Assembly: GCF_964355755.1 (NCBI RefSeq)
Contig: NC_092670.1
Location: forward strand, 32,910,388-32,974,387
DNA: 64,000 nt
Source of the DNA: Antedon mediterranea
Taxonomy: Eukaryota; Animalia; Echinodermata
Direction of reading: 5' to 3'
This document shows positions 5,739 through 58,600 of this stretch, one piece after another. The notes below the pieces were generated by a model, which had not been told where the DNA came from, searched no databases, and worked only from the letters and a program-made list of their open reading frames with translations. Position 1 is the stretch's first letter; every line of letters starts with the position of its first letter. The position numbers and the translations under genes are program-made.

Positions 5739-8329
5739 CTTCAACCATAATCAAGAAATTGCAGCTTCCACTATTTCTAGATGGATCCTTAACATCGAAC
5801 ACAAACCGGTGACTTCCAATCTCAAGAACAGCGGGAAATACATCTACTGGATCTGGAGAGATTTTCAATGGATTGTCTGAGTTGTCAGTTGCAATTATAT
5901 CGGCTGAATAATCAACAGTGGCCGTGAGTTTACCGAAATCAGTGACTACAGTAACATTTTCATTCGGACATGTCAAACTTGGCCTTTCCATATCTATGAA
6001 AACAAAAGAAAAATAAACAAATGACTTGATTTTAATACGGTGTATATCCATCCTAACAAAAAATATATTAGGTAGTATTTTACTATACCTTGAACCAATA
6101 TTGTAAAATTGCAGCTCCTTCTGTTATTAGAAGCATCCGTAACACTGAATAAAAACAAATGACTTGCAATCTCAAGAACAGCGGGAAATACATATACTGG
6201 ATTTGGATAGATTTTCAATGATTCGTCTGAGTTGTCGGTTGCACTAATATCGGTTGAATAGTCAACGGTGGCCGTTGGTTTACCGAAATCAGTGACGACA
6301 GTCAAATTGTCAGCCGGGCATTTCAGAACAGGATCTTCCGTATCTATGAATGCAATTTATAATAAATGAAATTTAAACACATTATACGATGTATATATAA
6401 ATCCAGTCTAGCAACAACAATACTAGGTAGTGTTTCACTGTACCTTCAACCAATATTGTAAAATTACAGCTCTCGTTATTGTTACAAGCATTCTTAACGT
6501 CGAATACAAACAGGTGACGTCCAATCTCAAGAACAGCGGGAAATACATCTACTGGATTAAGAGAGATTTCCAATGGTTCGTCTGAGTTGTCAGTTGCAAC
6601 AATGTCGGTTGAATAGTCAACAGTGGCAGTTGGTTTACCGAAATCAGTGCCTACAGTCAAATTGTCAGCCGGGCAGGTCAAAACAGGCTTTTCGAAATCT
6701 AAACAAATTACAAATAATTCAGAGTTTGTCCGGTACGCCTATATGAAAGAAACACATTTTTTAAACGATTGACGTGGTAAAAATTAGCGGATTTGTTAGA
6801 CGACAAAATTAGTATGATAATTTTATGAATGGGTGTACTTACACTTTTCACATATAGCTATCCTATTATCGGAACATGATATATCATTCCAAGTACCATT
6901 TTTATTTTCCACTATAACAACACAATCTTCACCACCTGTTTTGTCGTTTGGTTCATAAGTAAGCCTATACCAATCTAAAGGATCGGATAGTGTTGAATAA
7001 TAACTAGAGGATTTTGCGCTCAAATGTTGACTTTTAGTCCCACATATAAACTTTTGATGTTGAAAGGAAACTTCGTAGTAAGTACTGTTTATTTTGTATC
7101 TTATATATCTTACTAGATGGATTAAAACGGCAAATAAAATATCTATATATAAGGATCTATAACTATAACGTTTGAAAATAATATTTTTGTTAAATATCTT
7201 ATTTGACTTTTCTGACGCAAAAAAAAATTATTTTACAAAATACATGCAACATACTTGTATAATTTAAACTGCTTCCTGACAACCATACAAATTCGCCTTC
7301 TGTTTTGATGTCATTGTAGCCAATCCAAGCAGCGTTTGGCGTAGAATTTTCAGCAGCTTCAAGTCGTGCAAGTATCCACGAGTTTTCGTTTTCATTTGCA
7401 ATTTCTACCAAATCACCATTGAAACTCTGGCATGTATTTCTCATTGAATCCATTGTACCAACTGTACATGTAATCAAATAGCATTTAGTGGTTTCATCGT
7501 AATAGCTCCATCCATTTTGACACCCTGAAAATGGAATTGTTCTAATAGTTCTACATGACCCTACTATTTACCTACGAACATTACTATAGACTAGTCAGTA
7601 TACATTCTTTTAAGAATTAGATAATACAGTAATACAAGTGACAACATGAGACTAAACCGTTTTTCGACCTAATAAAATACTATGTATCACAAACATATGC
7701 ATCCCTTAAAAAGATAATTTCTTGGCACATATGAAGTTTCATACATGTAATACTAAACAATTTATACAAGGCCATATACATGGCTGCAGTCGCGTGCTCA
7801 AATTTGAGTTAGTGTTTACCGACCGACCAACCAACCGACATAGTGAGCTGTAGAATCGCGGGACTAAAAATGAAGACTGGTTGAACAACACAGACAAAAA
7901 CAATAATTACAGACATGGTGCAGGTCTAGTGAAAATATGTATTATTTAAAATTTAGAAGTAGTAGAATAAAAACTTTAATTTTCCTGTTTTAGATTTATC
8001 TTGCTGATCGAAAAGCTTAGAAATTTGAAAATTAGTAGAGAATACATTTTTGTTTTATGCCTAAATTTTAGAAGCATTTTAAAAGTTTATAAAAAAGATA
8101 CAGAATGGATTTTGGTTCAAACTTCACAAAAAATGTAAGTGACATTGTTGACAAGGTCTCACCTTTAGTTACACTAAACTAGGATTATAAATGCAATAAG
8201 ACAAACGTTCGGAGGCATAGTGGGCTCCTAACATAACATTTAATAACCATTATTTCAAAACTCACCATCACAAATGACGTAATGTGTAACAAACAAAATT
8301 AGCAGTAATATACGTCCTCTTGGTCCCAT
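5739..8329 (-). CDS. Receptor paralog A, 5' exons: signal peptide, C-type lectin, 3 HYR domains (probable adhesion GPCR continuing leftwards)
   Basis: GT-AG exons with compatible phases: 8266-8329 (MGPRGRILLLILFVTHYVICD), 7255-7524 and 6843-6974 (CTL: CQNGW...AWIGYND...EPN...C...WNDISC), and 6444-6698, 6089-6343, 5739-5993 (255-nt HYR exons). Clearly paralogous to gene B. Downstream exons not resolved. Confidence 0.85.
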
Positions 8330-9657: not shown

Positions 9658-10686
9658 GTATGTAATTATTGATAACCGTCGTTCAAATAAAAGGTGAGAC
9701 TGAACCTACACAAACGAGTTGTTCTGTTAAGTGTATTTCAATACTTCTCACTTATAGAAGCTTCGGAAGTTTAAAACATTAATGAGTAAGTAGTATTATT
9801 CTGAGTAAAACAATAGTTATGCCAACTGGTCTTTTAACTTTTCGAATGGATTCTGTCAACGCTAATTTGGCTGGAGTGTCCATCGGAAGCCTTAGCATGT
9901 CCGGTCCATTTGTATTTTCTTTTCCTTATTATGTTTGACCATTTCAGTTCTTCCCTAGGTTGGTTCTTTACATTTTTTTTGGTAAATGGTAGATAACAGT
10001 GCGATGAATTCTACTACAAATAGTACACGGCAGTTTCAAACGCGATATCCGAGACAAAAAGTGTTTACAACGCGCTTTTGATTGATACGCCTGGCGCGAG
10101 CCTTGAGCAGCTATTTATAGCCCACCAACATCGAGCGAAATGTTTACATTAGCTAGCTATAAACAGAGAGTGTATCATACGAAGTAAATACAGTCTTACA
10201 ATGACAAATTAATAAAGTTTTCCTCGAATCTTACAGTGTTTGCTTTATTATTGTATTTTGTATTAGGGAAAATTGTCTAGGATTAAAAAATATTATTAAA
10301 AAAGCGAAATTTTAACGATGTTTGCGATAGTTTCAAAAGCTGAAAATATACATAAATAGCGCCCTCACGGCGAAAGTTTATCGTCGCGGTAAGTTCAAGC
10401 TTTTGATCGTCTGATAGCAAATCTCTGCAATTTTTTCGAGCAACACCGTTAATTCCAAGTGAAAGCGGAGACTTTATTCTTTATTTAGCTCAAAATTCAG
10501 GCTGACGTCTACTTTCAAATTGATTTGAGCTAAATTTGAAATTGACTTATTTCTGTTCAAAATTCCAGTGATTTTATAGGTAAAAATAGGCCTAGGGCAA
10601 AGTTAATTATATATTTTTTAAAGAATTGTGTATTGGTTTTGCATTGACTGTATGTGGTATGTTACTGTTATTTATTGTCTTGTGAA

Positions 10687-13600
10687 ATGGAGTACCATAC
10701 ATATGCATTGAGTAATTTATGTCGTGTATGTGGTGTCAAGTTAACACGAAATCAGCGAAAATTTGACCTAACTAAAGTAAAAGATAGCGTCCTGACATTT
10801 TTAAATATCGATTTAACCCATGAAAACAAAGATGTACATCCACCATTCATTTGCAAGAACTGCCAATTTTCAAGCTATAACAAGGTTAGCACAACTCAAA
10901 GGTACATCTGGAGACAACACACACAACAATCATGTTTCACATGTTATTTATTATCAGAACAGTCAAAACCAGGTAAGAGACTAAAACAAGTAAAACTCAA
11001 CACATTATTTTCTGAAACAGAATGTGACGTTATTCCATCAAAATTTACAGTCAATGACAAAATCAATTCTGAACCTTTCATTTGCCAAATATGCAACTCG
11101 ATTTTGTCTTTCAACAGTCTTGAGTCAAACTGTTCACATCACTATTGTTCTAGTTGTATGTATAATTTGTTTAGTACCCTCCATGTTAACGTATGTTCAT
11201 GTCTTGTGTGCGCAAAGCCAATGCACATGCTGGAATTTAAACCCGCCTCCCAAATTGTAATAGAGTCTCTAAAATCACTAGAATTACAATGCTCGTGCAA
11301 TAAGTTCATAAAATACTCTCAACATCAGAGACATATTTGTGAACACCAGACAACTAAAGAAGTGGTTTATCATAATGTTTCAAAAGCTGTATCAGTGTTA
11401 GAGAAATCACTAGAAGATAGTCATGTCTCCCAAACAATACAAACGTTTGCAGAAAAAGTTGTTTACAATCAACTAAAGAAAAGTAAGGAAATGCTGATTG
11501 CAACAAATGGTCGGGTGAGTGCTTTAAAACAAATTCTGTAATTATCATATTGCATGTTATAAAAAGTAGATTAATATTATTATAACAGAATTGTTAGCAT
11601 AAAACATACAAATACAATTCCTATCTACAGCCAGCAAAGATTGCTATCATACCAAACACCAAAGTCTCAAGTGATAAGGCCAGTTCTCGAACTGTTTCAA
11701 GACGAGCAAATAGCATCAGCAGCATCATAAAATCAGTTGGCAATAGTGAGGCTGGTGATTTCCATCAAAAAGTGTACTCAGCCAAACATATGAGTCAAGC
11801 GGTCTTAAAAGCAGCCAACATAGCATCAACTTCGTCTATAGATACAGATAAGGCTCTGGCAATGGTGTCAGACTGCCATCTGGCATGGAACCAGCTACGA
11901 AAGCTAAGAAGGTAAACAAACAATTATGTGATTAAATAAAACCATGCATGAATACAGGCATTTTAGACACAGTCAAGTATGTCTAGTAATAAAGCGAGAC
12001 TACATTATTAATCCTTTTTATGTACTAGATATGTGGAGAAGGGGACAATACCATCAGAGAAAAGGATGCGGCAGCGGCAAAATGATCTCATTGGGGATTA
12101 TTTTGAATCCACAATGGAAATGCTATGTTTTAGGTCTGAGACGTCCCCAGACGGGATAGAATTAAGATCAACGCCTACTGTCAAACTGAAAAACATTAAA
12201 AAAGTTGTATTTTCATATCTTGATGAACACTCAAGGTACGCTGAAGTTAAATTTTAATATGTGCTTACAAAGTGTAGAACTTACTTTTTAGGACTTTACT
12301 TTTGTTCCTATGGATTTGCTATGGAAATAAAAGTTAAAAGAAATTAATTAAAAACTGAATTAATATTTACTAAATTTTTTTACAGACTGAACAACCTATC
12401 TCCCAATAATAACGAGATTTGGATAAAGTTTGGCGGGGATAAGGGAGGTGGAAGTACCAAATTTGAGGTACAGATATGTAGCCTCGCCAAACCAAATTCA
12501 ATTAACAACATCATCGTCGTACTAATATTTGATGCCCCTGACATGATGTTTAATATTAACCGGACTCTTCCGGAAGTGGCCCACCAAGTTGTTGCTTTGA
12601 ACGGGGAAAAATGGCGGTAAGAATACAACTAGTATATCAACTTAATTATGTGGATGCGTATACAAGTAATAAAATAAAAATATATGTATAATTTCTTTCA
12701 GCAATTACACACTGAGAGTTTTCTGTTTTGGGGACTATGAGTATCTAACAAAACTCTATGGATTAAATGGACCAAATGGTAAACTATTAAATTATTTTAT
12801 CATTATTTAATTTATACAAAATCTTTCTAAGCCAATTAAAAAAATGCTAAAATATGCAGTAATACAGTATAAATAAAATTTTTATTTATACTGTATTACT
12901 GCATATTTTAGCATTTTTAAACATTGTGAAAAAATTTGAATACTTTTAGCTCGATACTGCTGTCTCTTTTGTGAAAAACCAAAAGCAGAAATGCAATTAA
13001 AGGCACCACCCGCCAAACAGCGATCATTGGCTTCAATCAGAGCCAACTATAGAATGTTTATGGAAGATGGCGGAATTGAAAGCCGATCTAAGGATGTTTC
13101 CATGAGCGTTGTTAATAATCCCTTAGTATCAATTGAGGTAGATCATGTAAGTACATCAGTTTTGTTTTTAATTATCTTTATATTAGAGAAACAAATGTAC
13201 TTACTTCATTATATGGCACTGTTGGTATTAAAATTTATATCTTTTAGGTGTCTGTTCCTAGCCTGCACTTGTCATTGGGCATATTCAAGAAGCTCTTTGA
13301 TATGCTTGAGACGGAGGCGCACAGCATAGATTGCCTCATATATTCCCTAAGGAAAAATGGAGAACTTGATGACACTTCTGAATCAAAGTTTGATAAAATA
13401 ATTCAACATCAGATCCAAACACAAATTGATATCAAAGAAAAGATTGAAGAAAAGAAATTAAAGTTGACTGAGATGGAGGATGCAATGCCATTAATCTATC
13501 TTAAAGGAAGTGTTGATGGTAGCATCATTACCAATGTGGGAAAGATAGTCAAATTGAGAGAAGAGATTGAGTCACTGGTAAGTTACTCAAACAATAAATG

Positions 13601-14611
13601 ACATAGATGCGTCTTGCCAGACACATACTCTAAAGACAAAACTTGTATTATATTTTATTTTACAGACAAAATGCATGGAAAATGGGCTTCCATTTGGAAC
13701 GGGTCCAATTGTCACATCACTGGAGCGTGTGCTACAAAAAAATCGCATCCAACGGCAAGCCTATCATGGTAAATCATTTATTGGTAACCATGTTCATAAA
13801 TGTTGTCAGGTAAATTAACTATTCTTTTAATTGATATTGTTTCAACTGTTAATTATTAAAATTGTAGTTTTTAAAATGTATATTTGTTTTTAATAGGACC
13901 ATGTTAGGAATGAACTAGTGAATGCTCCACTACATGAAATGAAAATTCAAGAAGCTGAGATTCCTATCGGAAAAATTCAGCTAATTGACAAAAGAGTAAA
14001 AGAATTGGTCACCAAGTACGATGCACTCCTTTCAAAATTTTCTAGGGTTCACAACAACTTGAATCATTCAAAACCTGTCACAGATGTTGATATTCAAGGA
14101 AATGGTAATGTAATTATGCTTACCTTTCAAGGTATTCCTTAGACATGCCATTGTTTCTTTTCCTACAACACACTGCAACTGTTTCTTTTCTCTTCTACAA
14201 AAAAAATTCAGATGAAGCCATAAAAGACTTTATGGAGGAATATCGAAAAACCAACAAAAGTATATCTCCAAAATTACATATGCTCGAGGAACATGTCATT
14301 CCCCAATTAAAGGCTTGGAGATTTGGTCTGGGACTGGTTAGCGAGCAAGGTGGGGAGTCTATTCACGCCGCGCTTAATAAAAGGAAAAGAACAGTTGCTG
14401 GGATGCATGACAGACTTGGACAGTTAACATCCATGATGCGGTCACATGCAATTACCACTCAGCCATGCATAATAGAAGAAATAGTTGAACCCAAAAGAAG
14501 AAAAATTGGTAACAATTTACACTTTATTGATTACACTATTTGTGCTTTTTAGCTCCCTGCTCACCAAAAATTAAATAAACCTGTTTATATTTTTCAGAAA
14601 AAGAAGAATAA
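10687..14611 (+). CDS. Spliced RAG1-like/Chapaev DDE transposase, about 937 aa, 11 exons
   Basis: Exons 10687-11514, 11631-11911, 12029-12235, 12386-12616, 12702-12778, 12950-13146, 13248-13577, 13666-13809, 13897-14104, 14212-14508 and 14598-14611 are all GT-AG and join to a 2814-nt open frame. Motifs: H-x7-CRVCG...HPPFICKNC...WRQH..SCFTC, RING CQIC...CSHHYCSSC...CLVC, NGRP, GGDKGG, FGDYEYL, CLFC, PSLHLSLG, PKLHMLEEH, SEQGGESIH. The last tiny exon is the least certain. Confidence 0.9.
12840..12918. repeat. Perfect palindrome with 39-bp arms in transposase intron 5
   Basis: AAAAATGCTAAAATATGCAGTAATACAGTATAAATAAAA, a single T, then its exact reverse complement. Confidence 0.9.
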
Positions 14612-15904
14612 AGTACACGACAATGAATGCGAAATAAAAGAAAATATAGGCTTACTGATAAATCTGACGGAGTGCCATCTTCTTCTTTATTATGGATTCT
14701 CTTATGAACCACACTTGCATCAATAAAGTAGTCGTACTTGTTTGTGTTGGTGGTATTTTTGGAACCTGTAGTACAATTTTTGAATTATAAATATTTATCA
14801 TCATTATTTAAAAAAATGGTGGACTAGCGATTGAAATACATGATGAAATATTATATTATAATTAGGACTATACTGTCAAAATTAAAATCAAAATTTTATT
14901 TTTTATTCTACAAATGCAATGCTGTTGCTGCCATAGTTTAGTAATATTCAAGCCATAGGAAGATAGACTATGATATTTTCACATTTTCTACTGTAGAATA
15001 ACTTAGGCCCTCATGAAAGCTAGTTAGTAAGTATACCTATCCTCCTAGGCCTACCTATGTCTTGATGGTACCATATTAAAAAATTAGGCCTAGCCTAGCT
15101 AGATAGAGCTGTTACTAAAGCCTGGCCCTGCTGATTTCCCCTCTTAACGACATATACTTGGGCTAGGCCTACTAAGAGTATATTATTCTTATTCTAGGCC
15201 TAGGCCTATACAGTATTTATTTTTCGTGGCTTAAACCTAGTACTAGGTGACAAACCTTTGTTAGGCCTAGGCCTTTAGCAGCACACCCACGTGTGCAAAA
15301 CAGGCAAATGGGCCCCGACTTTCTGTGTATATAATTATTAAACTGGATTAGACGTCAGCGAGATTTTTTAAATATTGTTTATCAAGTTTTTGAATTTTCA
15401 CATCGACTAGGCGCCGATGTTTATGTAAATTGCAAAAAAAATATATAACCTCACCATTACCCTGTAATTAAACTGCTATTTTTTACTGTTTTTTGTCGCA
15501 AAATAGACGTAAGATTTCAATACTCATATCTCGTGAAGTCTTGAGAAACGGAGTGACCGCTGGCTTCGAATATCAATTACACGCCTTCTTCTTCGAATAT
15601 AACATGAATATTCATTAAATTTTCAATTATGACACTGTCTATTGGTCAGTTTATTCCCTCTCTTTTACCAGGGTATTAAAAATAGTCTTCCGGGTATTTA
15701 AACTAGCGCCCTCTATAACATAAAATAAGAAAAAGCGAGCATCGAAACTATAGAGGGCTCACCACTTTTTGTCTCGCTGGAAACTGCCGTGAGTATCATT
15801 GTGTTACTAAATAGGCCTATATAAGCCTATAATACAATATTGTGTGTATAAATGTTGCGTGGTTTCGGCGACGCGAGACACGTGTGTCAGATAGGCGATA
15901 GCGA

Positions 15905-17916: not shown

Positions 17917-20900
17917 TAGGCTAGTCAATCTAGCAAAAAAAACAGCCCAAAGTGAAACAAATTGCAAACAGAGATTTTTCTTTTTTAAATGGTCATATAT
18001 GATGAGGAGATCAAAATTTGAGCATCACACCTCTGTCACTCATCCCGATGATATGCAAATTAGCTTAAATATGCAAATTAGGGTGAAATTACAAGGTTAC
18101 CATATCTCAAAAACTACTAGTCCGAGAGAGTTGATTTTTTCACTGATCTATTCAAAATGTATATATTTATATTTACTCTAATGAAACATTTTACGAAAAA
18201 ATGACCGGAAGTACAACATTTGACCTTCGACCTCATTTCTCAATGTTTGCATATACAATGTGACTAAAATGTCTGTAGAGACTTTATTTTGCCCTCAAAT
18301 GACCCAGACATAGGTTCCTAATAGCCAGCATAGGATCACTTTGTAATTCCCAAAATCACACCTTTGTCACACACCTCGAAAGTATGCAAATTAGTAGTAC
18401 AATTTAAATAAAATATGCAAATAAGGAGAAAAAATTACAGTTGTCCTATATCTCGAAAACCACTAATGCTAGAGAGCTGATTTTTTCACAGCCGTATTCA
18501 AAATGTACATATTTCTATTTGCTCCAATGAAACATTTTACAAAAAATTGACCGGAAGTATGACATTTGACCCTCGACCCCATTTCTCAATAATGCATGAA
18601 ACTAAAATGTCTGTAGAGACTTTGTTTTGCCGTCAAATGACTCCGATACAGGTTTCTAATAGCCAACATAGGACTGTTTAGTAGATCTCAAAATCACACC
18701 TGTATCACTCACCTCCAAAGTATGCAAATTAGTACAAGTTACATGAAATATGCAAATTAGAAGGTGAAATTAAAGGTTCCTATATATCGAAAACCACTAA
18801 GGCTAGAGAGTTGATTTTTTTAATAACTTGTTCAGAATGTACATATTTATATTTACTCTAATGAAACATTTTATGAAAAAATGACCGGAAATACAACAAT
18901 TGACCCTCGACCCCATTTATTAATGTTTGCATACATAATGCGACTAAAATGTCTGTAGAGACTTTGTTTTGGACTCAAATAACTCGGATATATGTTTGCT
19001 ATAGTCAGCATAGGACCGCTTTGTAATTCCCAAAATCACGCCTTCGTTTTGGCATGGTTGGAATTCCCTTTTTTCGTATTAGTTTATGTACAGCGCTTAG
19101 AGGTTACACAACATTAGGCGCTATATAAATCCAGGATATTATTATTATTATTTCTCAATATTTACATATAATGCAACTAAAATGTATGTACAGACTTTGT
19201 TTTGGCCTCAAATGACTCGGATACAGGTTTTATATAGCCAGTATAAGTCAAGCACCTCGAAAGGATGCAAATTAGTAGTACAAGCTATATGAAATATGCA
19301 AGTTACAGTGAATTGCCTTATGTATCTCGAAAACGCTAATGACCGAGAGAGAGATATGGCAACTTTCTTGTACTACTGATTTGCATACTTTCAAGCGAAG
19401 TAACAGAGGTGTGATTTTGAGAATTACTAAACAGTTCTATGCTGGCTATAGAAAACCTGTATCTGGGTCATTATTGAAAAAAAAAATTATCAAAAGTATG
19501 ACATTTGACCCTCGAACCTATTTCTCAATATTTGCATATAATGCAACTAAAATGTATGTACATACTTTGTTTTGGTCTCAAATGACTTGGATACAGGTTT
19601 TATATAGCCAGTATAGGATCGTTTAGTAATTCCAAAAGTCAAGCAACTCGAAAGTATGCAAATTATTAGTACAAGTTATATGAAATATGCAAATTACAGC
19701 CTTATGTATCTCGAAAAACGCTAATGACCGATAGAGATATGGCAACTTTCACCTCTTGTACTACTAATTTGCATATTTTCTAGGGAAGTAACAAAGGTGT
19801 GATTTTGAGAATTACTACAGTTCTATGCTGGCTATAGAAAACCTGTATCTGAGTCATTTGAGGCCAAAACAGTCTGTACAGATATTTTAGTTGAATTATA
19901 TGAAAATATTGAGAAATAGGGTCAAGGGTCAAATGTCATAATTCAATCAAGACAATTTTTGCATAAAATGTTTCATTACAGCGAATATAAATATGTACAT
20001 TCTGAATCAACTCTGAATTCAAATCAACTCTCTAGCATTAATGGTTTTCGAGATATGGGAAGACTGTAATTTCACCCCTAATTTGCATATTTCATGTAAC
20101 TTGTACTAATAATTTGCATACTTTCAAGGTATGTGACAAAGATGTGATTTTGGGAATTACAAAGAGGTCCTATGCTGACAATAGGAAAACTGTATCCGAG
20201 TCATTTGAGTCCAAAAAAATTATCTACAGACATTTTAGTCGCATTATGTATGCAAACATTGATAAATAGGGTCAAGGGTCAATTGTTGTATTTCCGGTCA
20301 TTTTTTCGTAAAATGTTTCATTAGAGCAAATATAAATATGTACATTCTGAACAAGTTTTTGAAAAAATCAACTCTCTAGCGGTTTTCGATACATATAGGA
20401 ACCTGTAATTTCATCCCCTAATTTGCATATTTCATGTAACTTGTACTAATAATTTTCATACTTTGAAGGTGAGTGATACAGGTGTGATTTTGAGATTTAC
20501 TAAACATTCCTATGTTGGCTATTAGAAACCTGTATCCGAGTCATTTGAGGGCAAAACAAAGTCTCTACAGACATTTTAGTTTTCATTATATATGCAATAT
20601 TGAGAAATGGGGTCGAGGGTCAAATGTCATAGTTCCGGGAATTTTTTTGTAAAATGTCTCATTACAGCAAATATAAATATATACATTTTAAATATTTTGG
20701 TGAAAAAATCAACACTCTAGCATTAGCTGTTTTCGAGATATGGCAACACTGTAATTTCACTCCCTAATTTGCATATTTAATATTACTTGTACTACTAATT
20801 TGCATACTTTCGAGGTGCGTGACGAAGTTGTGATTTTAGGAATTATAATACAGTTCTATGGTGGGTATTGAAAAACAATATCCAAGTCATTGAGTCCAAA

Positions 20901-21260
20901 ATAAAGTCTCTACAGACATTTTAATCACATATTTATGTAAATATTGAGAAATGGGGTCAAGGGTCAAAATCTGGTACTCCCGGACATTTTTATGTAAAAT
21001 GTCTCATTAGAGCAAATATAAATATATATATTCTGAACCAGACTGTGCAAAAATGAACTCTCTACGATTAGTAGTTTTTAAGATATGGTAACCCTGTAAT
21101 TTCACCCTAATTTGCATATTTAAGCTAATTTGCATACCTTCGGGATGAGTGTCAGAGGTGTGATGCTCAAAAAATAATCACCTTATCATATGTAACCATT
21201 TAAAAAAAAAAATCTCTGTTTGCAATTTGTTTCACTCAAAATGCTAGATTGACTAGCCTA
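17917..21260. mobile_element. Non-autonomous Academ-like foldback element made of inverted arrays of roughly 300-360-bp units
   Basis: Termini TAGGCTAGTCAATCTAGCA and TGCTAGATTGACTAGCCTA, 3-bp TSD GGT, long inverted arms of repeated units. TAG...CTA ends with a 3-bp TSD fit Academ. Confidence 0.75.
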
Positions 21261-36315: not shown

Positions 36316-37786
36316 TACGGAAGCCCGTTCGAGCCACAAGTTAACTATATTTTAAAAGCTGTTATCTGGCGGCGCCACTTAATTATCTGGTGGCCGCAGA
36401 TAATTAAGTGGCGGCCGCCAGATAATTAAGTGACGCCGCCAGATAACCCGTCACGTGACATATACGTGCATTGGATCAGAGGCGATGTTGCATATGGAAC
36501 GCCATCGCTTCCTCCGGCAGCAAACTTTAATTCTATTCGGCTCTTTTAGCATTCGGCGCATTTCTATTCGGCCCATTTACCATTACGTTCGGCTCTTTCA
36601 GTATTCGGCGCATTTCTATTTGGCCCATTTACCATTACGATCGGCTCTTTCAGCATTCGGCTCTTTTTTATTCGGCCCATTTACCATAATACATTCGGCT
36701 CTTTCAGCATTCGGCTCTTTTTTATTAGGCCCATTTACCATTACGTTCGGCTCTTTTTGATTTGGCCCTTTTTTATACGGCGCAATTAAATTCTCACCTT
36801 TTACATGGGGGTCAATGGGAAGAATCAACGGCTGGAAATGAGTTTATGAAAAGTTTACAAAACATATAGATGCAGCATGGTAGAGTGTTTGGTTGGTTGA
36901 ATTAAATGAATTTGAAGGCTATTTCAATATGACTAATCATTTTATTGACATGATTAATGTGTTAGAGAACTTGCAATTGTCCCACCTTATTGACCATTTT
37001 GAGAAAGAAAAGGTTTGATTTATGGCCTAGGTTAGCTAGGCCTAGCCTAGTGTCAGCCTAACATAATAATAATAATTTACCCTTTCTCTCTCAAAGTTTG
37101 TTAAAAGATGAATTAATTTTAGGTTATTCAACACATCTTTAATCGGTTGGCTACTCATGGTTGGCGCCATGATGATAAAATGTTTGTAAACTTTTCATAG
37201 ACCCATTTCCAGTCGTTGATTTTCTTCCATTTGACCCCATGTCAAAGGTTAGATTTTAATTGCGCCATATAAAAAAATGCCAATTTTAAAAGAGCCCAAC
37301 GTAATGCAGAAAGATCCGAATAAAAAAGGGCCGAATCATAAAGAGCCAAACGTAATGGTAAATGGGCCGAATAAAAAAGAGCCGAATGCTGAAAGAGCCG
37401 AACGTAATGGTAAATGGGCCAAATAGAAATGCGCCGAATGCTGAAAGAGCCGAACATAATGGTAAATGGGCCGAATAGAAATGCGCCGAATGCTAAAAGA
37501 GCCGAACGTAATGGTAAAAGAGCCGAATAGAATTAAAGTTTGCTGCCGGAGGCAGCGATGGCGCTCCATATGCAACATCGCCCCGGACCCAATGCACGTA
37601 CATGTCACGTAACGGGACATGTACTAATAATTAAGTGGCGGCCGCCAGATAATTAAGTGGCGGCCGCCAGATAATTAAGTGGCGGCTGCCAGATAATTAA
37701 GTGGCGGCCGCCAGATAATTAAGTGGCGGCCGCCAGATAACAGCTTTTAAAATATAGTTAACTTGTGGCCCGAACGGGCTTCCATA
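36316..37786. mobile_element. Palindromic MITE with 5-bp TSD and internal inverted minisatellites
   Basis: TIRs TACGGAAGCCCGTTCG and CGAACGGGCTTCCATA, TSD CTAGG at 36311-36315 and 37787-37791. Arms contain 22-bp GATAATTAAGTGGCGGCCGCCA repeats and ATTCGGC-rich arrays. Confidence 0.85.
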
Positions 37787-40900: not shown

Positions 40901-43900
40901 CCAAATGCATTTGGTCATTGAAATCGTAAACAATAGAGGAAAATACCATTCCGTTGAAATATCTAAATGCAATGTTTGCATTAGATCTGATGGAAAGTAA
41001 TGCAGAAAAGTAAGATATAGGATTTGTTTTAAAGAGTAAAGTAAAAAAGAAATATTCTCATTTCATCAAATGATGACTATTACTTTATTTGTCTTTTGAA
41101 TGTATATTACCTTACCATGCAATTCAGCAGATTTGCTGCCAATTGACTTGTTTTTAATAAAAAAAAAATAAAGAAAAGAATCATTTTATAAAATCCACAT
41201 ATTTAATAACACTTTATATAAAGAAATAACTTACAAATTAGAAATATCAACATTTTCATTAACAGATTCATTCTCGCCCATTGTGTTGTTACTGTAAGAT
41301 GCTATAATTAGCATATCACCTTGAAGAAAAATTAATTAAAATTACAAATAATATTTACCAAAATAAAATATCGAATCTATATTTAGTCATAAAAAGAACA
41401 TATAATATAAAATATAGAGAAAAGAAGAATGAATATGTTTTATCTTTTTCAGAATTTGGTCAAGAAGTGCTATAAGTCGTATGATTATTTATTACTACCA
41501 AAATACAAGAAGAATGAATGTATGAAGTGTCATTTGTAATATAAAGTAATAACAAATAACACATAGAAATAAATTTAATAGAGAAAAAAAAAATGAGTTT
41601 CATCTAATTAGCAACATCATTGCAATTGGCTTTTGGCTAAATTCAATTCGAATTACTATGCTATTCATAGTCCTATCATATTAAAATATTGTAATTGTAA
41701 GAATGGCACGATCTCCATATTTGGGAAAAATCTCCAATAAACATAAATAGATAGCAAGTGAAGGGTCTAATCAAACCTGTATTTTCAGCTATAATTTTCA
41801 GATCAAAATCCAGCTGATTATCGTCATGTTCCAGACTGCTATTAACGGATATCTTGCTCTCAATCACTACTAATCCAGCTACAAAAAAAACCATAAATAT
41901 ATCATCATGTCTTTTCTAACAACACTACAAGACACTTCCAAAAACCTGATTGAATATTTATTTAGTTTTGATTTGAATATATACTTTTTAGGAAGCTCAA
42001 ATTTGAATCTCAAATAAATAAGAACTTGCCATATGTTTCTTCCTCATAAACTGTCCGCTCCATTGCTTGTAAGTTTGATATTTCGGATAAAACTCCTTGT
42101 TCAAACTCATGGAATTCAGTTATGAATAATTCCATTGTCTAAAAAAAGAATTAAGTATGTTACACTTTACAACTAAAACTAAATCTACTAACGGAATTAT
42201 TCTTATTCTCTAACGATCATGCATAGATTGGAATTATTTGTTTTAATTGTTACCTATTGTGTTCATAAATACGAACTATTTACGAAAAGTACTCTAAATT
42301 TGTTAAAAGAGAAGGGAATGAAAATAAAATATCATTAAGTAAAAATAGTATGTTGTAAAAAAATAAACTGTAATCATCCTACCATTTCTGTTTCTGAAGA
42401 TTCCAAATCGAAGCAAAAAAAAAAAAACAATAATGATAAGCTTATTAAAATGAAAATAATTATATAAATCAGCATAGTTAGTTTATTAACACAGCTAAAA
42501 ATCTACCAGGCTGGGAGTAAACAAGGAAAATTCTAAAAACATAGGCTGAGAAAAGCATTTTTCAGATTGAAATGTGGCTTACAACAGTTAGTAGAACTTT
42601 TGTGGGTTTAGGCCTAAGTTTTTGGAATAGTTTTAAAGCTGTTAGATTTAGTAATGAATAACTTATTGTTAAGAATATGAGATTCATCGACGAATCATTG
42701 CATCATAACAGCTATGATTTAAGACTTCCTTCAGTTTTTTTTTGTAGACCATTACACTCAAGCAACACAAACATCTATATGGTAAGGTATGGATATACAG
42801 ATATACCAAAAAAAAAATTAAGGAAGAATAGGGGGTGGGAAAAATGTTTGGGGGGTGTTAAAGGTCATTGACCTCATTTTATAATACTAAAATTGTATCT
42901 TCGCAACAAAATATGGTATATGGTTGAGCTTGGTGTCGAAATGCACACACTTATGCCAGGAATTAAATAAAATTAAATTGGACCCATATGATCATATCTT
43001 GACCCTAAAAAATCAGGTCAAAGGTCAACATACCCATTTTTTGGGGTTAACACATACTTATAAATACACTATCAAGTCAAATATTACATTATAAAGTGCA
43101 TGTCATCTGATTTGTGTAGTTATGGGTATACAGATATACCAAAAAGAAAGTAAGGAAGGAAAATTCTTTTTTTTTGTGTTAAAGGTCATTGACCTAAAAA
43201 TCTTTGCAACAAAGTATGATATAAGGTTGATCTTGGTGTCAAAATGCACAGATTAGAAATGAACCACAAATATTGCTCCACTATGACTATATCTTCACTG
43301 TTACAAATGAGGTCAAAGGTTAATATACCCATTTTGTGTTTTCCACATAAATTAGGATAGTCTATCCTGTCCAGAATTGCATTATATTATATATAAAAAA
43401 AAAACACTCACTAAATTATTTATGACTTCAGGTCTGAGAGAAAACAAGTGGAAACATGTTTTTTTTTTATTAAAGGTCATCTAACAGATTGTGTTAAATG
43501 ATTGATACCTGTATATTTATAATACATACAATTTGCATAAATAATAAAAACATAATGATAATAATGATACACATGCTACTTATTGGTAATCAGTTCCTCT
43601 TCATCACTAGGTTCGTTTGCACTTGAACCATTCGAGCAGTGTCAACATCACACCCCATATGCAGAAACGCATGATAATCCTACCTTAATACAGCTGCATT
43701 TAAGTCATTGACTCTGCCTATCGCCTTCTTTGCAGTTGCAGCATATTCCTTTTAGAAGACCATCTGGTGTGATCTCCATGTAATCATTTTCCACCTTAGA
43801 TGTCCGTTACTATCCAGATCCTATTCTCTTCCAACAGGCTCAAGAACGGATTTGTTCAGAATACAACTTGTACATGAACCCGAAAAGAGTGCTGTGTAGC

Positions 43901-46900
43901 TGCATTTTCTGTTGGTGGTAGACGGTATGGGTCAATTTTACCCTTTAATTGCTGCTTGTTTTTGAAACTTTTCATAACGAGTCTTTTCAAGAAGTGTATG
44001 TTGGTTTCCATATGTAACCTGCCTTGCTATTAACCCTGCTCTTTGGGTGGCGTTATCAGTCGACCGCATATTCGTAAATGTAGTGTAGACAGTATTGGGA
44101 AACTTGCATTTATAGATTGCACATTAATTGGTGTGGCCATAAATGCAAGAAACCGTGTCTTTTACTGACCAACCATACTTAAACAGAAACTCTTCCTTCT
44201 CACCCATTTTAGATATATCATAGAGGTCAACAGCATCTCCGTCATCTTCTGCTTGATGCACACAGATATTGTAATATTTATTTTTTATTGTTATTTTCAA
44301 TATTTCTACATAACAAAAAAATATAAAGTATAACAGGGGAGTAGCGGAAAAGCAAAAGTAATAAAACTGTCATCTTGTGATGTGCTTGACCAGCCCCTGT
44401 CAACTAGGACGATACAATAAAACCGACATTAACAAATTTAGAAAAATACATAAAAAAATATGCAATAATAAAATGTTAACAAAAGTGTTATAAAATGCAA
44501 TTGCTATCTGAAAATAAAATAAAATGTAATTCATAAGCTCAGTAGTTATCATCTTGATTAGTGAAGATTTGTTCTTTTCATTTACTAGAAAGACCTCCCT
44601 GTCGCAAGAAATGATCAATTCTGGTGTTATTCGTAGTGTCTGTGAAACTTTTTTCCCTGTCATCCGACGTTTATGTTCGTGGTATTTTGTTGAAGGTTTA
44701 TTCCCATAGCCATCGAAGACTACTGTGATTTTTACACCCTAGTTGTCATAGTAGCACAATACACGGATAACTGTACTAGTATAGTGTTACTATGTTATCA
44801 TCGGCCTGGCAACTGTTTTAATCTATTTCTACAATCAGATGCTGATGGTCTCTTGATATATCTAAAAAAGATATCGGTGACAAAGAAGAGTTTCTGTTTA
44901 AGTATGGTTGGTCAGGAAACGACACAGTTTCTTGAATTTATGGCCACATCAAATGTGCAATATATAAATGCAAATGATCATAGGCATCTTGGTGTAATGC
45001 TTAATGCAAAACTCAAGTGGGATTCCCATATCCAATCTGTAATTAACAAAGCGTCTTTATCTTTAAATATGCTACGTCGTGTCAAACATATTCTACCTCG
45101 ACAGGCTCTCTGTCACATTTACATATCACACGTTAGACCATTAATGGAATATGCAGCTCCTGTTTGGTGTAATATTCCAGATAAATTATGTGATGAACTA
45201 GAAAATATCCAGATTTCTGCAGGTAGAATATGTACTGGTGCGTGGAAACATACAAGTCATAATGCATTAAGACAAGAATTAGGCTGGTTATCATTGGAAA
45301 AACGTAGACAATTTCTTAACCTAATACTGTTTTTTTTAAATTATTCATAAGTTAACACCAGTGTATCTTTACTCCTTATTTAATTTTTCTGACAATATTG
45401 AAGTTTATAACTTGCGTAACATCCGAAATATAATAATTCCATTTTGTAAGACCACATCATATCGTTTATCTTTTGTCCCATCTATTATAACACATTGGAA
45501 TGAGTTAAATAATGAAATAAAAAATTCCTCATTTCTTGTTGAGTTTAAAAAATTGCTACTGAAATCCAATTTGTTTGAAACAAAAAAAACGTTCTTATTA
45601 TGATACAGGTGATAAGAAGATTAACCAAATTCACACTAGAATCCGACTTGGTTTCAGCTGTCTCAATTCACATTTATTCTTACATGGACTTCGGGACAAT
45701 CCAAATTGTACTTGTGGCTTTAATGTTGAGAATCCGCTTCATTTCTTATGTTACTGCCCTAATTATAATACACAAAGAGATATTCTACTTGTAAGCGCTA
45801 ACTCAATTATTGAGGATATCTTAGCTAAGGATTTTTCTTTAACATTTAATTTTACATTTTTAAGTGAAATTTTTATTTTTGGTTCCGATCTTCTTTCGAA
45901 TTGTGAAAATGCTTTATTATTTTATTATGTACAACAATTTCTTGTTAATTCTGGAAGATTTAATTGATGTTTCTGTTAGTTGTTTTAAAATGTTGTATTT
46001 GTTAATCTGAGGCGCCTTGAAGTTAAGATGGTTCCATCTTGTAAGGCGCCTCTGTGTAATATACTGAATAAAAAAAAAAAAAAAAAAAAATGCAAGTTTT
46101 CCAATACTGTCTACACTTACATTTACGAATATGCGGTCGACTGATAACGCCATCAAAACAGCAGGGTTAATAGCAATGCTGGTTACATATGGAAGCGTAA
46201 ATACACTTCTTGAAAAGGCTCGTTATGAAAAGTTTAAAAAACAAGCAGCAAAGGATAAAATTGACCCAGACAGTCTACCACCAACAGAAAATGCAGCTAC
46301 GCAGCACTCTTTTCGGGTTCATCTACAAGTTGTGGTCTGGAAACATCTGAACACATCCATTCTTGAGCCTGTTGGAAGAGGATGGGATCTTGATAGTAAC
46401 GGAATTCTAAGGCCGAAAATGATTACATGTAGTATCACACCAGATGCTCTTCTAAAAGGAATATGCTGCAACTGCAAAGAAGGCGATGGGCAGTGTCAAT
46501 GACTTAAATGCAGCTGTATTAAGGTAGAATTGTCATGCGTTTCTGCATATGGGGTGTGATGTTGGCACTGCTCGAATGGTTCAAGTGCAAACGAACCTAG
46601 GGATGAAGAGGAACTGATTACCAATAAGTAGCATGTGTATCATTATTATCATTATGTTTTTATTATTTATGCAAATTGTATGTATTATAAATATACAGGT
46701 ATCAATCATTTAACACAATCTGTTAGATGACCTTAATAAAAAAAAACATGTTTCCACTTGCTTTCTCTCAGACCTGAAGTCATAAATAATTTAGTGAGTT
46801 TTTTTTTTATATATAATATAATGCAATTCTGGACAGGATAGACTATCCTAATTTATGTGGAAAACACAAAAATGGGTATAGTAACCTTTGACCTCATTTG

Positions 46901-49900
46901 TAACAGTGAAGATATAGTCATAGTGGATCAATGTTATATGTGGTTCATTTCTAGTATAGTTCTGTGCATTTTGACATCAACATCAACCTTATGTCTTACT
47001 TTGTTGTGAAGATACAATTTTTAGCATTTTTAAACAAGGTTAATGACCTTTAACACGAAAAAAAAAAAGAATTTCTTCACCCCCAATCCTTCCTTACTTG
47101 TTTTGGTATATCTGTATACCCATACCTACACAAATCAGTCGACATGTACTTTATAATGTAATATTTGACTTAACAGGTATAGGTATATTGACCTTTGAAC
47201 TGATTTTTGAGGGTCAAGATATGGTCATAACGGTTCAAATTATTATTTTTTAATTCCTGGCATAATTGTGTGCATTTTGACACCAAGCTCAACCATATAC
47301 CATATTTTGTTGCGAAGATACCATATTTTGCATTTTAAAATGAGGTCAATGACCTTTAACATCCCCAAAAAAATGTTCCCCACCCCCTATCCTTCCTTAC
47401 TTTTTTTTAATATATCTGTATACCCATACCTACACAAATCCATTTAAATCAGCTTCTTTGCAAGTTTTTTGCAGATATACCATTATTTTGATTATTATGG
47501 TTACTAGTTGAATAATGTTAGTATACACATTAATGCGACACTGCAAATTCAACGAGATTGTCTAAGGAACTAATTCGACCAAAACCACAATCAATCTTAT
47601 TTTTAGTTCGAAACCCGAGCTAATAGATGAATGTGGTGTGTATTGACTGTGCTTATTAGTGACCACTACATGGTATACGGTACCCAAAATTGGAAACTTA
47701 ATAAAAAAGAAAGCCGTTTTGTTGATTTTAGATATAGATTATGATTCGTTCCAATTAAAAACCCCATGGCAAAATGTTTTAAACTACCATAGGGTTGAGG
47801 AAGCATTGACTCTATGGCACTCCCTATTTATGGGTGTCAATAACAAACATGCACCTATAAAATCGAAACGCGTCCGAAGTACTTCCTTACCTTGGCTTGA
47901 TGTTGAAATAACCCGACTTATGCGTCTCATCAATAATTTCCCCTAGGCATTTACAATTCGTTTCTCTTACATTTACAGTATTGTTAATAGCAACATTAAA
48001 TTGTACATTGGAAATTTACTTTTTGGATCCAATGAGCATGGATTTACTCTTGTTTGAATTTATTGTAAGTTTGTTTCTAATGGCCCAACTGTTAACTGTG
48101 TCCGTGGTATGTTTAAATTATCTTCAATATCTTTAACGCTGGAGGAACTGTACGTGAGTCATCAGCATACATAAATAAATTACAATTTACAGGGATACAA
48201 TGTGGCAGATCACTGGTATAAATGCTAAATAACAGTGGTCCCAGAATGGATCCCTGTGGTACGCCAATGTTCAATGGCAGAGGTTTTGATATTTTACCAC
48301 CGATATTTATGGATTGACTTCGATCACTTAGGTACGATGTAAACCATTTATTTACAGAAGTTGACATTTGTACATTTTTAAGTTTATCTATTAGGATTGC
48401 GTGATCTACCGAGTCAAACGCTTTACTGAGATCAATGAAAACAGTGCCGGTCATTTCTCCCCGTTCCATAGCATGGAAACACGCATTAGTCAAATCATGC
48501 AATGTCGTTTCTGTTGAATGTAACGGCTTAAGTCCAGATTGGCAACGTGGAATTATACTATTTTCATTCAAAAACGAATAAATTACAAAGTGCACCCATC
48601 TTTCTAAAATCTTCGATATAATCGGTAGTATTGAAAAAGGCCTATAGTTGTTTCTATTGCATTTGTCTCAGCCCTTGTGAATGTGTGTGACCAATGCATG
48701 TTTCTAATCTGCGGGATATCGTTCACATTGTATTGAGAGGTTCAATACATGCGTTAACGATTGTATGATAGGTCCATTATACGGAGATGTTATTTTAAGC
48801 ATTTTCACACAAACTCCATCTGGACCTGTTGCTTTACTATGGCAAACATGGATATTATTTGCTTTCGAACAAAATCTTCCGTGATATTAGGCAGTATACA
48901 CGGTTGAGGTGGTTCGTAACGTGGTAAATTACGGACATTGTTGTCCATATCAGGTTCCGGTACTAAGTCGTCACTATTTGCCGGCCATGCGATGTCCAAT
49001 TGTTGAAAAATATTCATTGAACGTATCAGCAATGCCAACATGATCGTCAATGTTCTTTCCATCTTTGGAAAGGATTGAATTTGGGATAGATGTTTGTTTG
49101 TTCGGAAGAACCTCTTTTAGTTTCTTCCACAGCATTGAAGAATCACTTCTGTTAGCTTCAATGGCTGATGTGAAATATTCCCGTTTCTTTATACGGATGT
49201 TGTTGGTTACACTATTCCGTAGTTTTTATATAGTTCACTTTGTCGGTCGGTCGGTCAGTCTGTCGGTCTGTCTGTCGGTCCGGTGTCACTATGCGTTTTA
49301 TCGCTTTCTGACCTTATCTTGATATCAGTTTAATCTAGCTAAGTCAATTCAATCGGTGTGGTTATGTTTTCACGGTGTGCAATAAAAAATTACGCGGTCT
49401 ACGCACGATTTAACGAAATCACGTTTGTAATCATATCTTCACAACCATGAATCACAATTAAATAAAATGTAGTACTCATAAATTTCAGGGCATAAATCAT
49501 CATATGGCAATACAATTACATGCGTAGCGCATGTAACGCATGCGTACGCGCGCTTAAAATTTTCAAAATTTATTTTCGATGAAATACGTTTCAGACAATT
49601 TTAAGCGTTTACAAAATTGCCATGAGTGCGCAGTTGCGCGCGCACTGCGCGTTAAATGTTATTGCGCACTCTATTTTGGTAAGTTGGTAGGTTGGTCGGT
49701 CGGTAAACACTAATGAGCACGCGACTGCAGCCATCTATATGGCCTTGTTTTAATGCATTCCAATCTATTTCTAAATTAGATTGTTTTGCGATTGCATGTG
49801 CACGATCACGTTGACGTTAAGTTGGACGCCACATGTTGAACATGTTAAGAAAACAGTTTCATCTAAACTGGGTATGTTAAGCAGAGTACAGAGCTGTGTC

Positions 49901-55600: not shown

Positions 55601-58600
55601 GTAGTGATAATGTGATAAATAATAAATATGTACATGCACTAACTAAAGATTCTTTGATTCGAGAGAATCGTGATGTATTTACAGGTTTAGGTAAATATCA
55701 AAAGTAAATTAGACACGATATATCACATTCTCATAAATAAATAATATTACTTTTCCTTAAACATAAATTGTTTCTTAGATCACATTCATATGTTTCAAAT
55801 TGTTTCTTAGATCACATTCATATGTTTCAAATTGTTTCTTAGATCACATTCATATGTTTCATACATTATAGGATGGTTTGAAAATAAACATAAAATGAAG
55901 TTAATTATTGATACATTTATTTATAATCCAATCGATCCGGTGGACGACTAACACGATCGTGTAAATATCAAGATCCTTATGACATCAAGTTGAAAAGTGG
56001 TGTTTCTCCAGTAGTCCATCCACCCCGCAGGGTGCCACTTAGTCTGCATACCAAGCTGAAAGAAAAACTTGACGATATGGAGAAGAGGGGCGTGATTAAA
56101 CGGACCGACAAACCAACAGATTGGGTCAACAGCCTAGTGATAGTGGAGAAACGAGACGGATCCTTGAGGTTGTGTTTGGATCCACGTGATTTGAACAAAG
56201 CCATTAGACGTGAACATCATATGATACCGACCGGTAAGGACGTAGTGAGTCAGCTGTCAGGTAAAACACTTTTCACTGTCTTTGACCAGAAAGATGCGTA
56301 CTGGCAAGTTCCTCTTACTGACGCTAGCGCAGATATATGTACATTCAATACTCCTTTTGGACGATACAGTTTTCTAAGAATGCCATTTGGTATCTGCAGT
56401 GCTAGTGAGGTGCTACAGAAACGAAACCAGCAAATATTTGGTCATATACCTAACGTACACATAATATCTGATGATATGATTATAGCTACAGGTAGTGAAG
56501 CAGAGCATAATGCAACAGTACAGAGGGTGAACAATGCCAAATTCAATGGAAGCAAGCTTAAGTATAAACAGTCTGAATTGGTGTTCATGGGAAACGTGGT
56601 GAGTGCCGATGGACAGAAACCAGACGAAGAAAAGGTTAGAGTTATCAAAGAAATGCCTGACCCACAATGTAAATCTGACTTGCAACGTATAATGGGGATG
56701 CTTAATTATCTGTCACAATTCATACCTAATATGTCCAATGTGAGTGCACCTCTCCGGGAATTGCTCAAGAAAGATGTTGCGTGGTTTTGGGGTCCAGAAC
56801 AAGCAGAATCCCTGAGGCAGTTAAAGGCGTTGATTAGTAGCAAACCAGTCTTAAGTTTCTTTGATCCACAGAAGCCAACCATTATCCAATGTGATGCATC
56901 ATCCACAGGGCTCGGAAGCTGTTTGCTTCAAGAGGGTCATCCGGTTGCGTTTGCCTCTAGGTCGTTAACATCAGCTGAAGTTAATTACTCACAAATTGAG
57001 AAGGAGATGTTGGCGATCTGCTTTTCTATACACAAATACCACCAATATGTATATGGCCGAGCTGTTGAAGTTCACACTGACCATAAACCACTCGAAACAA
57101 TCACACGTAAACCACTCCATAAAGCTAGTCCTAGAATACAACAAATGCTGCTCAAATTGATAAAGTATGAGCTTGATGTTAAGTATGTTCCTGGAAAGTA
57201 CATGTACATAGCTGATGCTCTCAGCAGAGCATATCCTGATAAGGTTGATCGTGATGCCCAACCCCTTGAACAGTTGAAATATAGGGTGCATAGTCTAGAC
57301 GAAATATTGCCCATGAGTAAAGCAAAAATTGAAGAAGCAATACGAGCTACACATGCAGATGTGATACTCCAAACTCTAATTCTAACATGCAAAAGCGGGT
57401 GGCCTAAACATAGATGGGGTGCACCGGAGCAAGTTAGGCAGTATTGGCATCTTCGTGATGAGATACATGAAATTGATGGTCTTGTGTTTTTAGGTGAGAA
57501 GTTGATTGTTCCTAGCCAAATGAGAGCAGATATGCTGAATAAAATTCATGAAAGTCACCTTGGGATGGAGAAGTGTAAGGCGAGGGCCAGGTCTATTTTG
57601 TATTGGCCAGGTATGACCAACGATATAGAATCAGTAGTGTCAAGGTGCCCTGTTTGTGTAAAGTTCATGCGTAGAAATCAACGGGAGCCGATGATTCCAC
57701 ATAAGGTTCCTATGAGACCATGGGCTAAGCTGGGCGCGGATATATTTACATTCGCTGGCAGAGATCATCTTATTGTAGTTGACTATTTTTCCAAATACCC
57801 GGAAGTAGTGACACTCACTAGCAAAACGGCTGGAGAAATCATCAAAAAATTGAAATCTATATTCTCAAGACATGGCATCCCTGAAATATTAATGACGGAT
57901 AACATGCCGTTCGCCAGCTACGAGTTCAAACAGTTTGCTAACCAGTGGGGGTTCGATTTAGTGACGTCCAGTCCGACATATGCCAGAAGTAATGGGCAAG
58001 TTGAACGTTTCGTCCAAACCATTAAGCAACTCATGAGGAAGTCCGTTGATGAGGGAAGCGATTTTCATCTTGCTCTACTAGACTATCGTGATTCACCTAT
58101 TGCAGGGTTGAATTGTTCTCCTGCTCAGTTGTTGATGAGCAGAAAGTTAAGGTCAACACTTCCAGTCACACATACATTGCTGCAACCACAAGTTATTGTC
58201 GGAGCTAGAGATTTCCTTCAGTCACGTCAACAGTCTATGACAAAATATTATGATCGTGGTACACGTGTATTGACGAAACTAAGAAAAGGGGACAACGTGA
58301 GAATATTGAAAGGACGGCAATGGGAACCTGCTGTTGTGGCTAATGAACATGAGCTACCCCGTTCATATGTAGTGATGACCGAAGATGGAACGTCGTACAG
58401 ACGGAATCGACAACATTTATTAAACACTCAACAACCGGATACTTTGCAGAAGGGCGTACCAACTTTGCAGAAGGTACCGGAAGCACCACCCTTACGTAGA
58501 AGTGATCGTGTTAGTCGTCCACCGGATCGATTGGATTATAAATAAATGTATCAATAATTAACTTCATTTTATGTTTATTTTCAAACCATCCTATAATGTA

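Follow-up and report, generated by a model that had tools for sequence, protein, structure and literature searches.

The stretch analyzed here (the window; 64,000 nucleotides of the echinoderm Antedon mediterranea, NC_092670.1, positions 32,910,388 to 32,974,387) carries at 10026-15791 a young and intact Chapaev DNA transposon. As an element it is ordinary; the unusual part is its ends. The same two sequence blocks stand at both termini, close together on one side and far apart on the other, and this design is common to distantly related lineages; on balance, a single transposase probably needs one end of each kind. Because distant relatives share long/short ends, in one case with spacers of exactly 12 and 23, the arrangement of one long and one short end that underlies antibody-gene assembly is probably more ancient and more widespread than described.

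Read from 10026, the left end consists of CACGGCA, 21 nt, and ACAAAAAGT (10054-10062); read from 15791 and reverse-complemented, the right end consists of CACGGCA, 12 nt, and ACAAAAAGT (15764-15772). These letters and spacings had been proposed in a sequence-only reading of the window, and on rereading they stand as given, as does the bipartite terminal inverted repeat of identical outer (CACGGCAGTTTC) and inner (CGAGACAAAAAGTG) blocks, whose distance is 9 bp, or roughly one turn of the double helix, greater on the left than on the right. Neither block occurs anywhere else in the window. The ends of this family have CAC at heptamer positions 1 to 3 and AA at nonamer positions 5 and 6, like the vertebrate recombination signal sequence (RSS). 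As the same reading had cautioned, the long spacer is 21 rather than 23, and the pair of 12 and 21 lies outside the RSS range of 12 ± 1 and 23 ± 1.

The element or part of it is present in 11 runs (5 studies, 4 organisms), of which four (X1, X5, X7, and X9) were compared. Contigs of X1 and X5 start at 10026; the left spacer is crossed without gaps by X1 record 1 and X5 record 8, and the right spacer by X5 record 14 and X9 record 30, the X9 contig entering another flank. Apart from one X7 contig with 4 extra bases in its right spacer, copies outside the window share its spacings, in other organisms too. Among the matches listed, about nine substitutions and a few gaps separate the long X1 pieces from the window, and the family is therefore young. 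At position 10057, every contig of X1, X5, and X7 that reaches it reads C instead of A (X9 has no coverage there), and the usual left nonamer therefore matches the RSS at 6/9 positions rather than the 7/9 that had been counted in the window copy.

A profile scan of metagenome contigs returned 59 loci with a related transposase. Allowing one mismatch, the outer block occurs 32 times in them; after 13 occurrences in matched or expected coding sequence were dropped, the remaining 19 all point inward and lie outside the transposase match. Most of these ends also carry an inner block with the consensus G-A-(C/A)-A-x-W-W-A-G-T. The spacer is 12 (offset 19) at the 3' ends of L031/L032/L042 and L033/L035/L045 and at the 5' end of L036 (the 3' end of L048, at the same spacing, is doubtful), 22 (offset 29) at the 5' end of L033 and the 3' end of L027, and 23 (offset 30) at the 3' ends of L016, L036, L046, L047, and L020, with L026 joining through a looser scan. 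Flanks of L031 and L032, and of L033 and L035, differ at the same end; therefore, these are true termini. The 5' ends lie about 1090 bases (L033) and 460 bases (L036) ahead of the Chapa domain. No outer-block terminus was found in contigs L001, L002, and L023, where the related transposases match as a single long stretch, that of L002 being protein P0016 without introns.

The transposase core of the window is 32-48% identical to loci with these ends. The ends fall into five lineages, the window's included, in a 40-row tree (22 loci from the 59, 17 proteins, and the window; coiled-coil columns excluded) that is midpoint-rooted without an outgroup and unsupported at its deep nodes. Which end is long is fixed inside a lineage and flips between lineages. 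In each of the three lineages for which both ends are available, the ends are asymmetric, at 21/12 (window), 22/12 (L033), and 12/23 (L036, whose two ends may come from different copies because it lacks a target duplication), the last two falling within the RSS range. The exact 12 of the short spacer, noted at the outset for the window, recurs, being found in four lineages, and the long spacer is 21, 22, or 23. L033, a full-length related element, is flanked by a 5-bp target duplication (AGTTG at 30-34 and 6201-6205; one copy, no empty site seen), a length that is that of Transib/RAG and outside the 3-4 bp stated for Chapaev.

Several comparisons bear on whether this register exceeds chance. 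A matrix built from the short ends (same locus excluded, and without the near-duplicates L032, L035, and L042) placed its best site at offsets 28-30 in 7 of 12 other candidate ends, with 53 offsets possible, and the reverse matrix, from long ends, placed it at 19 in 4 of 6 short ends; the nominal p, about 1e-6, overstates the significance, because the classes and offsets were defined post hoc and related ends are not independent observations. With a strict pattern and a free gap, the four gap lengths accounted for 6/6 matches at transposase loci against 9/51 in prokaryote genomes and 2/13 in viral contigs, a test that is partly circular because the pattern was derived from the same loci. In six 3' ends of one clade, all with a spacer of 23, the outer block is 82% and the inner block 66% identical, against 39% for the free part between them and 43% for the sequence past the inner block; for short ends from four lineages, the values are 83% (outer block), 62% (inner block), 17% (free part), and 21% (past the inner block). 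Spacer length and the two blocks are kept, and the intervening sequence drifts. Of what the sequence-only reading had proposed to check, conservation of the 12/21 spacing and nonamer over a varying spacer, the register and spacer length are conserved and the likeness to the RSS nonamer is not, and the spacer keeps its GTTTC start.

What the lineages share with the RSS is mainly the register: CAC, followed exactly 12 or 21-23 bases past the heptamer by a block that opens with A-C/A-A. The heptamer matches the RSS at 4/7 positions in the element and at 4-5/7 across lineages; the nonamer, beyond the window family, matches at 3-5/9. At the two positions where the RSS and Transib keep AA (PMC1131882), other lineages show TT or TA; nonamer position 5, which is A in the RSS, is T in 12/12 listed non-window ends. 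The spacer opens with five conserved bases, GTTTC, unlike that of the RSS. Judged by sequence, the likeness to the RSS nonamer is overstated and mostly a trait of the window family.

The gene between these ends is open throughout (Table 1). NCBI protein P0001 equals residues 383-937 of its product with one residue different, and intron 9 is spliced out in X5 record 12. The core, whose DDE triad was assigned from an alignment, matches PF06918 (E = 8e-14), which we take to be linked to Chapaev. RING-bearing subgroups of Chapaev transposons were reportedly described by Kapitonov and Jurka in 2007. The Pfam matches of exon 1 fall below cutoff (PF12560, E = 0.049; PF00097, E = 0.013), PF12560 is matched by 7 of the 16 members in the alignment (best E = 5.5e-10), and the best PDB sequence match of exon 1 is RAG1 (E = 6e-4, RING region). 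An N-terminal Chapa zinc finger, whose CRxCG and HPPFICKNC motifs fit those in PMC1131882, is present together with RING, as in two Chapaev subgroups, and the core carries the C(2)C, LH, and H(4)H motifs of Chapaev (PMC4079192). The termini read 5'-CAC ... GTG-3'. Among target-site duplication lengths of 2 to 8, only 4 fits, and empty sites of the flanking repeat pass from the left flank directly into right-flank-like sequence, without the second AGTA; this duplication lies within the 3-4 bp of Chapaev and differs from the 5 bp of canonical Transib, which also has the core alone, without Chapa or RING. The insertion site itself (about 9890-10025 and 15796-15900) is a very high-copy repeat whose summed depth is tens of times that of the element.

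The core is predicted to adopt a RAG1-like fold, at 13-14% identity to RAG1 on structural alignment, and sequence searches of the core against RAG1 gave no significant match; the relationship to RAG1 put forward from sequence is a distant one. Domain order (Chapa, RING, helical segment, core) is that of RAG1. The helical segment of exon 2 is likely the reader of the inner block, and weak structural likeness hints at a nonamer-binding-like domain there. A GRP occurs at residues 275-277; the nonamer-binding domain of RAGL and RAG1 bears a GRPR/K motif. The element was correctly called a RAG2-less Chapaev: Chapa, RING, and DDE motifs are present and no RAG2-like gene was found, the longest stop-to-stop frame in 14612-15791 being 57 aa and ATG frames in the antisense RNA at most 64 aa. 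RAG-like (RAGL) elements have a CCGHC tail and a core over about 30% identical to RAG1; this transposase ends without that motif, and its core lies far below that figure. Its homologues are all annotated "uncharacterized." Protein P0012 of the same species is a second, apparently full-length Chapaev transposase (951 aa, 32% identical).

On the reading we favor, a transposase dimer would grip and cut at the outer CAC block, the helical segment, in a position like that of the RAG1 nonamer-binding domain (NBD), would dimerize and read the A/T-rich inner block, and a tilted dimer would reach a near block on one end and a far block on the other, the two distances differing by roughly one helical turn. 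Such a reach would place spacer length, not sequence, under selection and would let the long end be either 5' or 3'. With its spacers of 12 and 21-23, Chapaev adds a third branch, farther removed, in which spacer length holds while sequence drifts and 5'/3' placement flips; this suggests an old design set by the geometry of the transposase dimer. Less firmly, the long/short geometry may have been inherited from a common ancestor of Chapaev and Transib/RAG. Only tentatively would we extend this to a true short/long pairing rule, exerted by a single protein without RAG2 through a domain homologous to the RAG1 NBD, with a 12/23 design predating the split of Chapaev from Transib/RAG; if so, the element, being intact, offers an enzyme on which the first workings of the rule could be studied. 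The origin of the 12/23 rule is disputed, between asymmetric Transib ends (PMC8355894) and RAGL ends (10.1101/2023.08.20.553239), as is the need for RAG2 in its enforcement.

It is possible, although we doubt it, that the inner block is a real second site on one face of the helix where either spacing fits either end, the long/short arrangement being inherited or mildly favored without any pairing rule. Two observations of our own would suit this reading: the flip of orientation between lineages and, against strict length control, an X7 contig with 4 additional bases at window position 15775, giving a right spacer of 16 instead of 12 (depth 306, compared to about 1320 for the element). Most Transib families are symmetric and only several 12/23-like (PMC1131882), and the preference is reportedly missing from RAG1 on its own (PMC8355894). 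Yet none of the three lineages with both ends is symmetric, and within one clade 6/6 3' ends stay long.

An asymmetry that is functional and arose in Chapaev independently of RAG/Transib, its numbers set by helix geometry and its nonamer likeness by chance A/T richness, seems to us unlikely. The poor nonamer matches outside the window family, with T at position 5, the low core identity to RAG1, the weak NBD homology, and the asymmetric ends of the unrelated piggyBac (PMC7351741) would all suit it; set against these are a block that begins exactly 12 bases past the heptamer in four lineages, with a nonamer-like start, the RAG1-like domain order, and the proposal that asymmetric ends are ancestral in Transib subgroup I and RAGL, AanRAGL having a 9-bp offset (PMC9435367). 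That the offset is a private indel of one copy, which the sequence-only reading had named as its own refutation, and the RSS likeness chance is next to impossible, because although the 7/9 left-end match is particular to the window copy, the asymmetry is common to other copies, other organisms, and four more lineages in the same register, and null scans are flat.

A spliced antisense RNA spans the element in run X5, which was presumed to be RNA by guess. Each of its joints can be read as a minus-strand GT-AG intron, with a GTAAG or GTGAG donor and a pyrimidine-rich acceptor, and it is noncoding (longest ATG frame, 64 aa). Contig depth, a poor gauge of level, is 66-101 for the contigs with these joints and 8-22 for most pieces outside the antisense exons. 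The element appears to have splice signals on each of its strands, and the RNA likely reflects host or self-silencing. A 39-bp inverted duplication in intron 5 is either private to the window copy or an assembly feature. Elsewhere in the window (17976-21212, 36378-37740, 42889-47327, and 55694-58768) are more long inverted-repeat structures, with arms up to 313 bp and 265 bp at 100%, some made of 22-, 52-, or 345-bp tandem units; these are probably foldback elements or miniature inverted-repeat transposable elements.

Table 1. Coordinates of the transposon and its parts in the window
Feature	Position	Strand	Remarks
Left target-site duplication	10022..10025	.	AGTA, 4 bp; flank letters, empty sites
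Left outer block	10026..10037	+	CACGGCAGTTTC, 12 bp; heptamer-like CACGGCA plus conserved GTTTC; conserved over lineages
Left free spacer	10038..10049	+	12 nt between blocks; heptamer to nonamer 21, long end
Left inner block	10050..10063	+	CGAGACAAAAAGTG, 14 bp; contains nonamer-like 10054-10062
Transposase gene	10687..14611	+	11 exons, 937 aa, open throughout
Transposase exons 1-6	10687-11514, 11631-11911, 12029-12235, 12386-12616, 12702-12778, 12950-13146	+	
Transposase exons 7-11	13248-13577, 13666-13809, 13897-14104, 14212-14508, 14598-14611	+	
Exon 1 domains	10687..11514	+	Chapa zinc finger (CRVCG aa 12, HPPFICKNC aa 51); RING and zinc finger aa 131-225
Exon 2 helical segment	11631..11911	+	aa 277-369, where RAG1 has nonamer-binding and dimerization domains
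DDE core	12386..14508	+	D457 (GGD), D527 (FGD), E883 (EQGGE); C546-x2-C549, L613-H614, H857-x4-H862
39-bp inverted duplication	12840..12918	.	Perfect, intron 5; missing in copies of X1, X5, X7 (joint 12835-12880)
Right inner block	15763..15776	-	14 bp, identical to left; nonamer-like 15764-15772
Right free spacer	15777..15779	-	3 nt between blocks; heptamer to nonamer 12, short end
Right outer block	15780..15791	-	12 bp, identical to left
Right target-site duplication	15792..15795	.	AGTA; flank letters
Antisense RNA	10026..15791	-	Spliced, five introns; outer limits provisional; five joints, run X5 alone
Antisense exons	about 15455-(15791), 14656-14765, 14124-14194, 13205-13346, 12285-12318, 11903-(10026)	-	

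An intact, apparently expressed single-protein member, together with natural 12/21, 12/22, and 12/23 relatives, makes the design directly testable, and the end signature offers a practical tool for Chapaev annotation. Published accounts treat Chapaev as a distant branch that bears Chapa and RING (PMC4411706), give it CAC...GTG ends, 3-4-bp duplications, and the C(2)C, LH, and H(4)H motifs (PMC4079192), and place it in the CMCT clade (PMC12730594); a 2026 preprint (10.64898/2026.01.24.700457) links the Chapa domain to RAG1, its available text mentioning no inverted repeats. RING-bearing Chapaev shares with our element the CAC...GTG ends, 4-bp duplication, Chapa followed by RING, DDE motifs, and single gene, whereas bipartite long/short ends are not mentioned in the available portions of PMC4411706 and PMC4079192. 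We found no account of asymmetric bipartite ends in Chapaev in the literature searched, the scope of which excluded Repbase reports and Panchin and Moroz 2008, and an earlier description is possible.

In piggyBac, too, the ends are asymmetric and made of several parts, and its single transposase needs them to transpose in cells, but it belongs to another superfamily, with a TTAA target, a 17-bp insertion, and a C-terminal cysteine-rich domain as reader (PMC7351741); we regard it as a convergent case. Closer are the 12/23-like Transib families (Transib5, Transib2_AG, and TransibN1-3_AG), single-protein DDE transposons with a CAC heptamer, an A/T-rich second block, and a short and a long spacer (PMC1131882). 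Transib differs in its 5-bp duplication, lack of Chapa and RING, A-run nonamer, and core much closer to RAG1 (PMC1131882, PMC4411706), compared to the 4-bp duplication and G-A(C/A)A-x-WW-AGT block of our element. Asymmetric ends are described for Transib subgroup I and AanRAGL (PMC9435367), the latter with 13-bp and 10-bp blocks and 4/13 spacers, giving the same 9-bp offset as here; the offset of PflRAGL-A is 10 bp (10.1101/2023.08.20.553239). RAGL and our element share a heptamer, an adjoining conserved stretch, an asymmetric spacer, and a second block, and differ in that RAGL encodes RAG2L, makes 5-bp duplications, and has the CCGHC tail of invertebrate RAG1L, none of which our element has (10.1101/2023.08.20.553239, PMC9435367). 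The heptamer-TR2-spacer-nonamer plan of PflRAGL-A is nearer to the conserved spacer start of our element than a true RSS is (10.1101/2023.08.20.553239). Compared with vertebrate RAG1-RAG2, the element differs in its long spacer of 21, conserved spacer start, nonamer match of 6-7/9 (3-5/9 in relatives), and absence of RAG2, and shares with it the predicted core fold, the domain order, and the short spacer of 12, with long spacers of 22-23 in related lineages.

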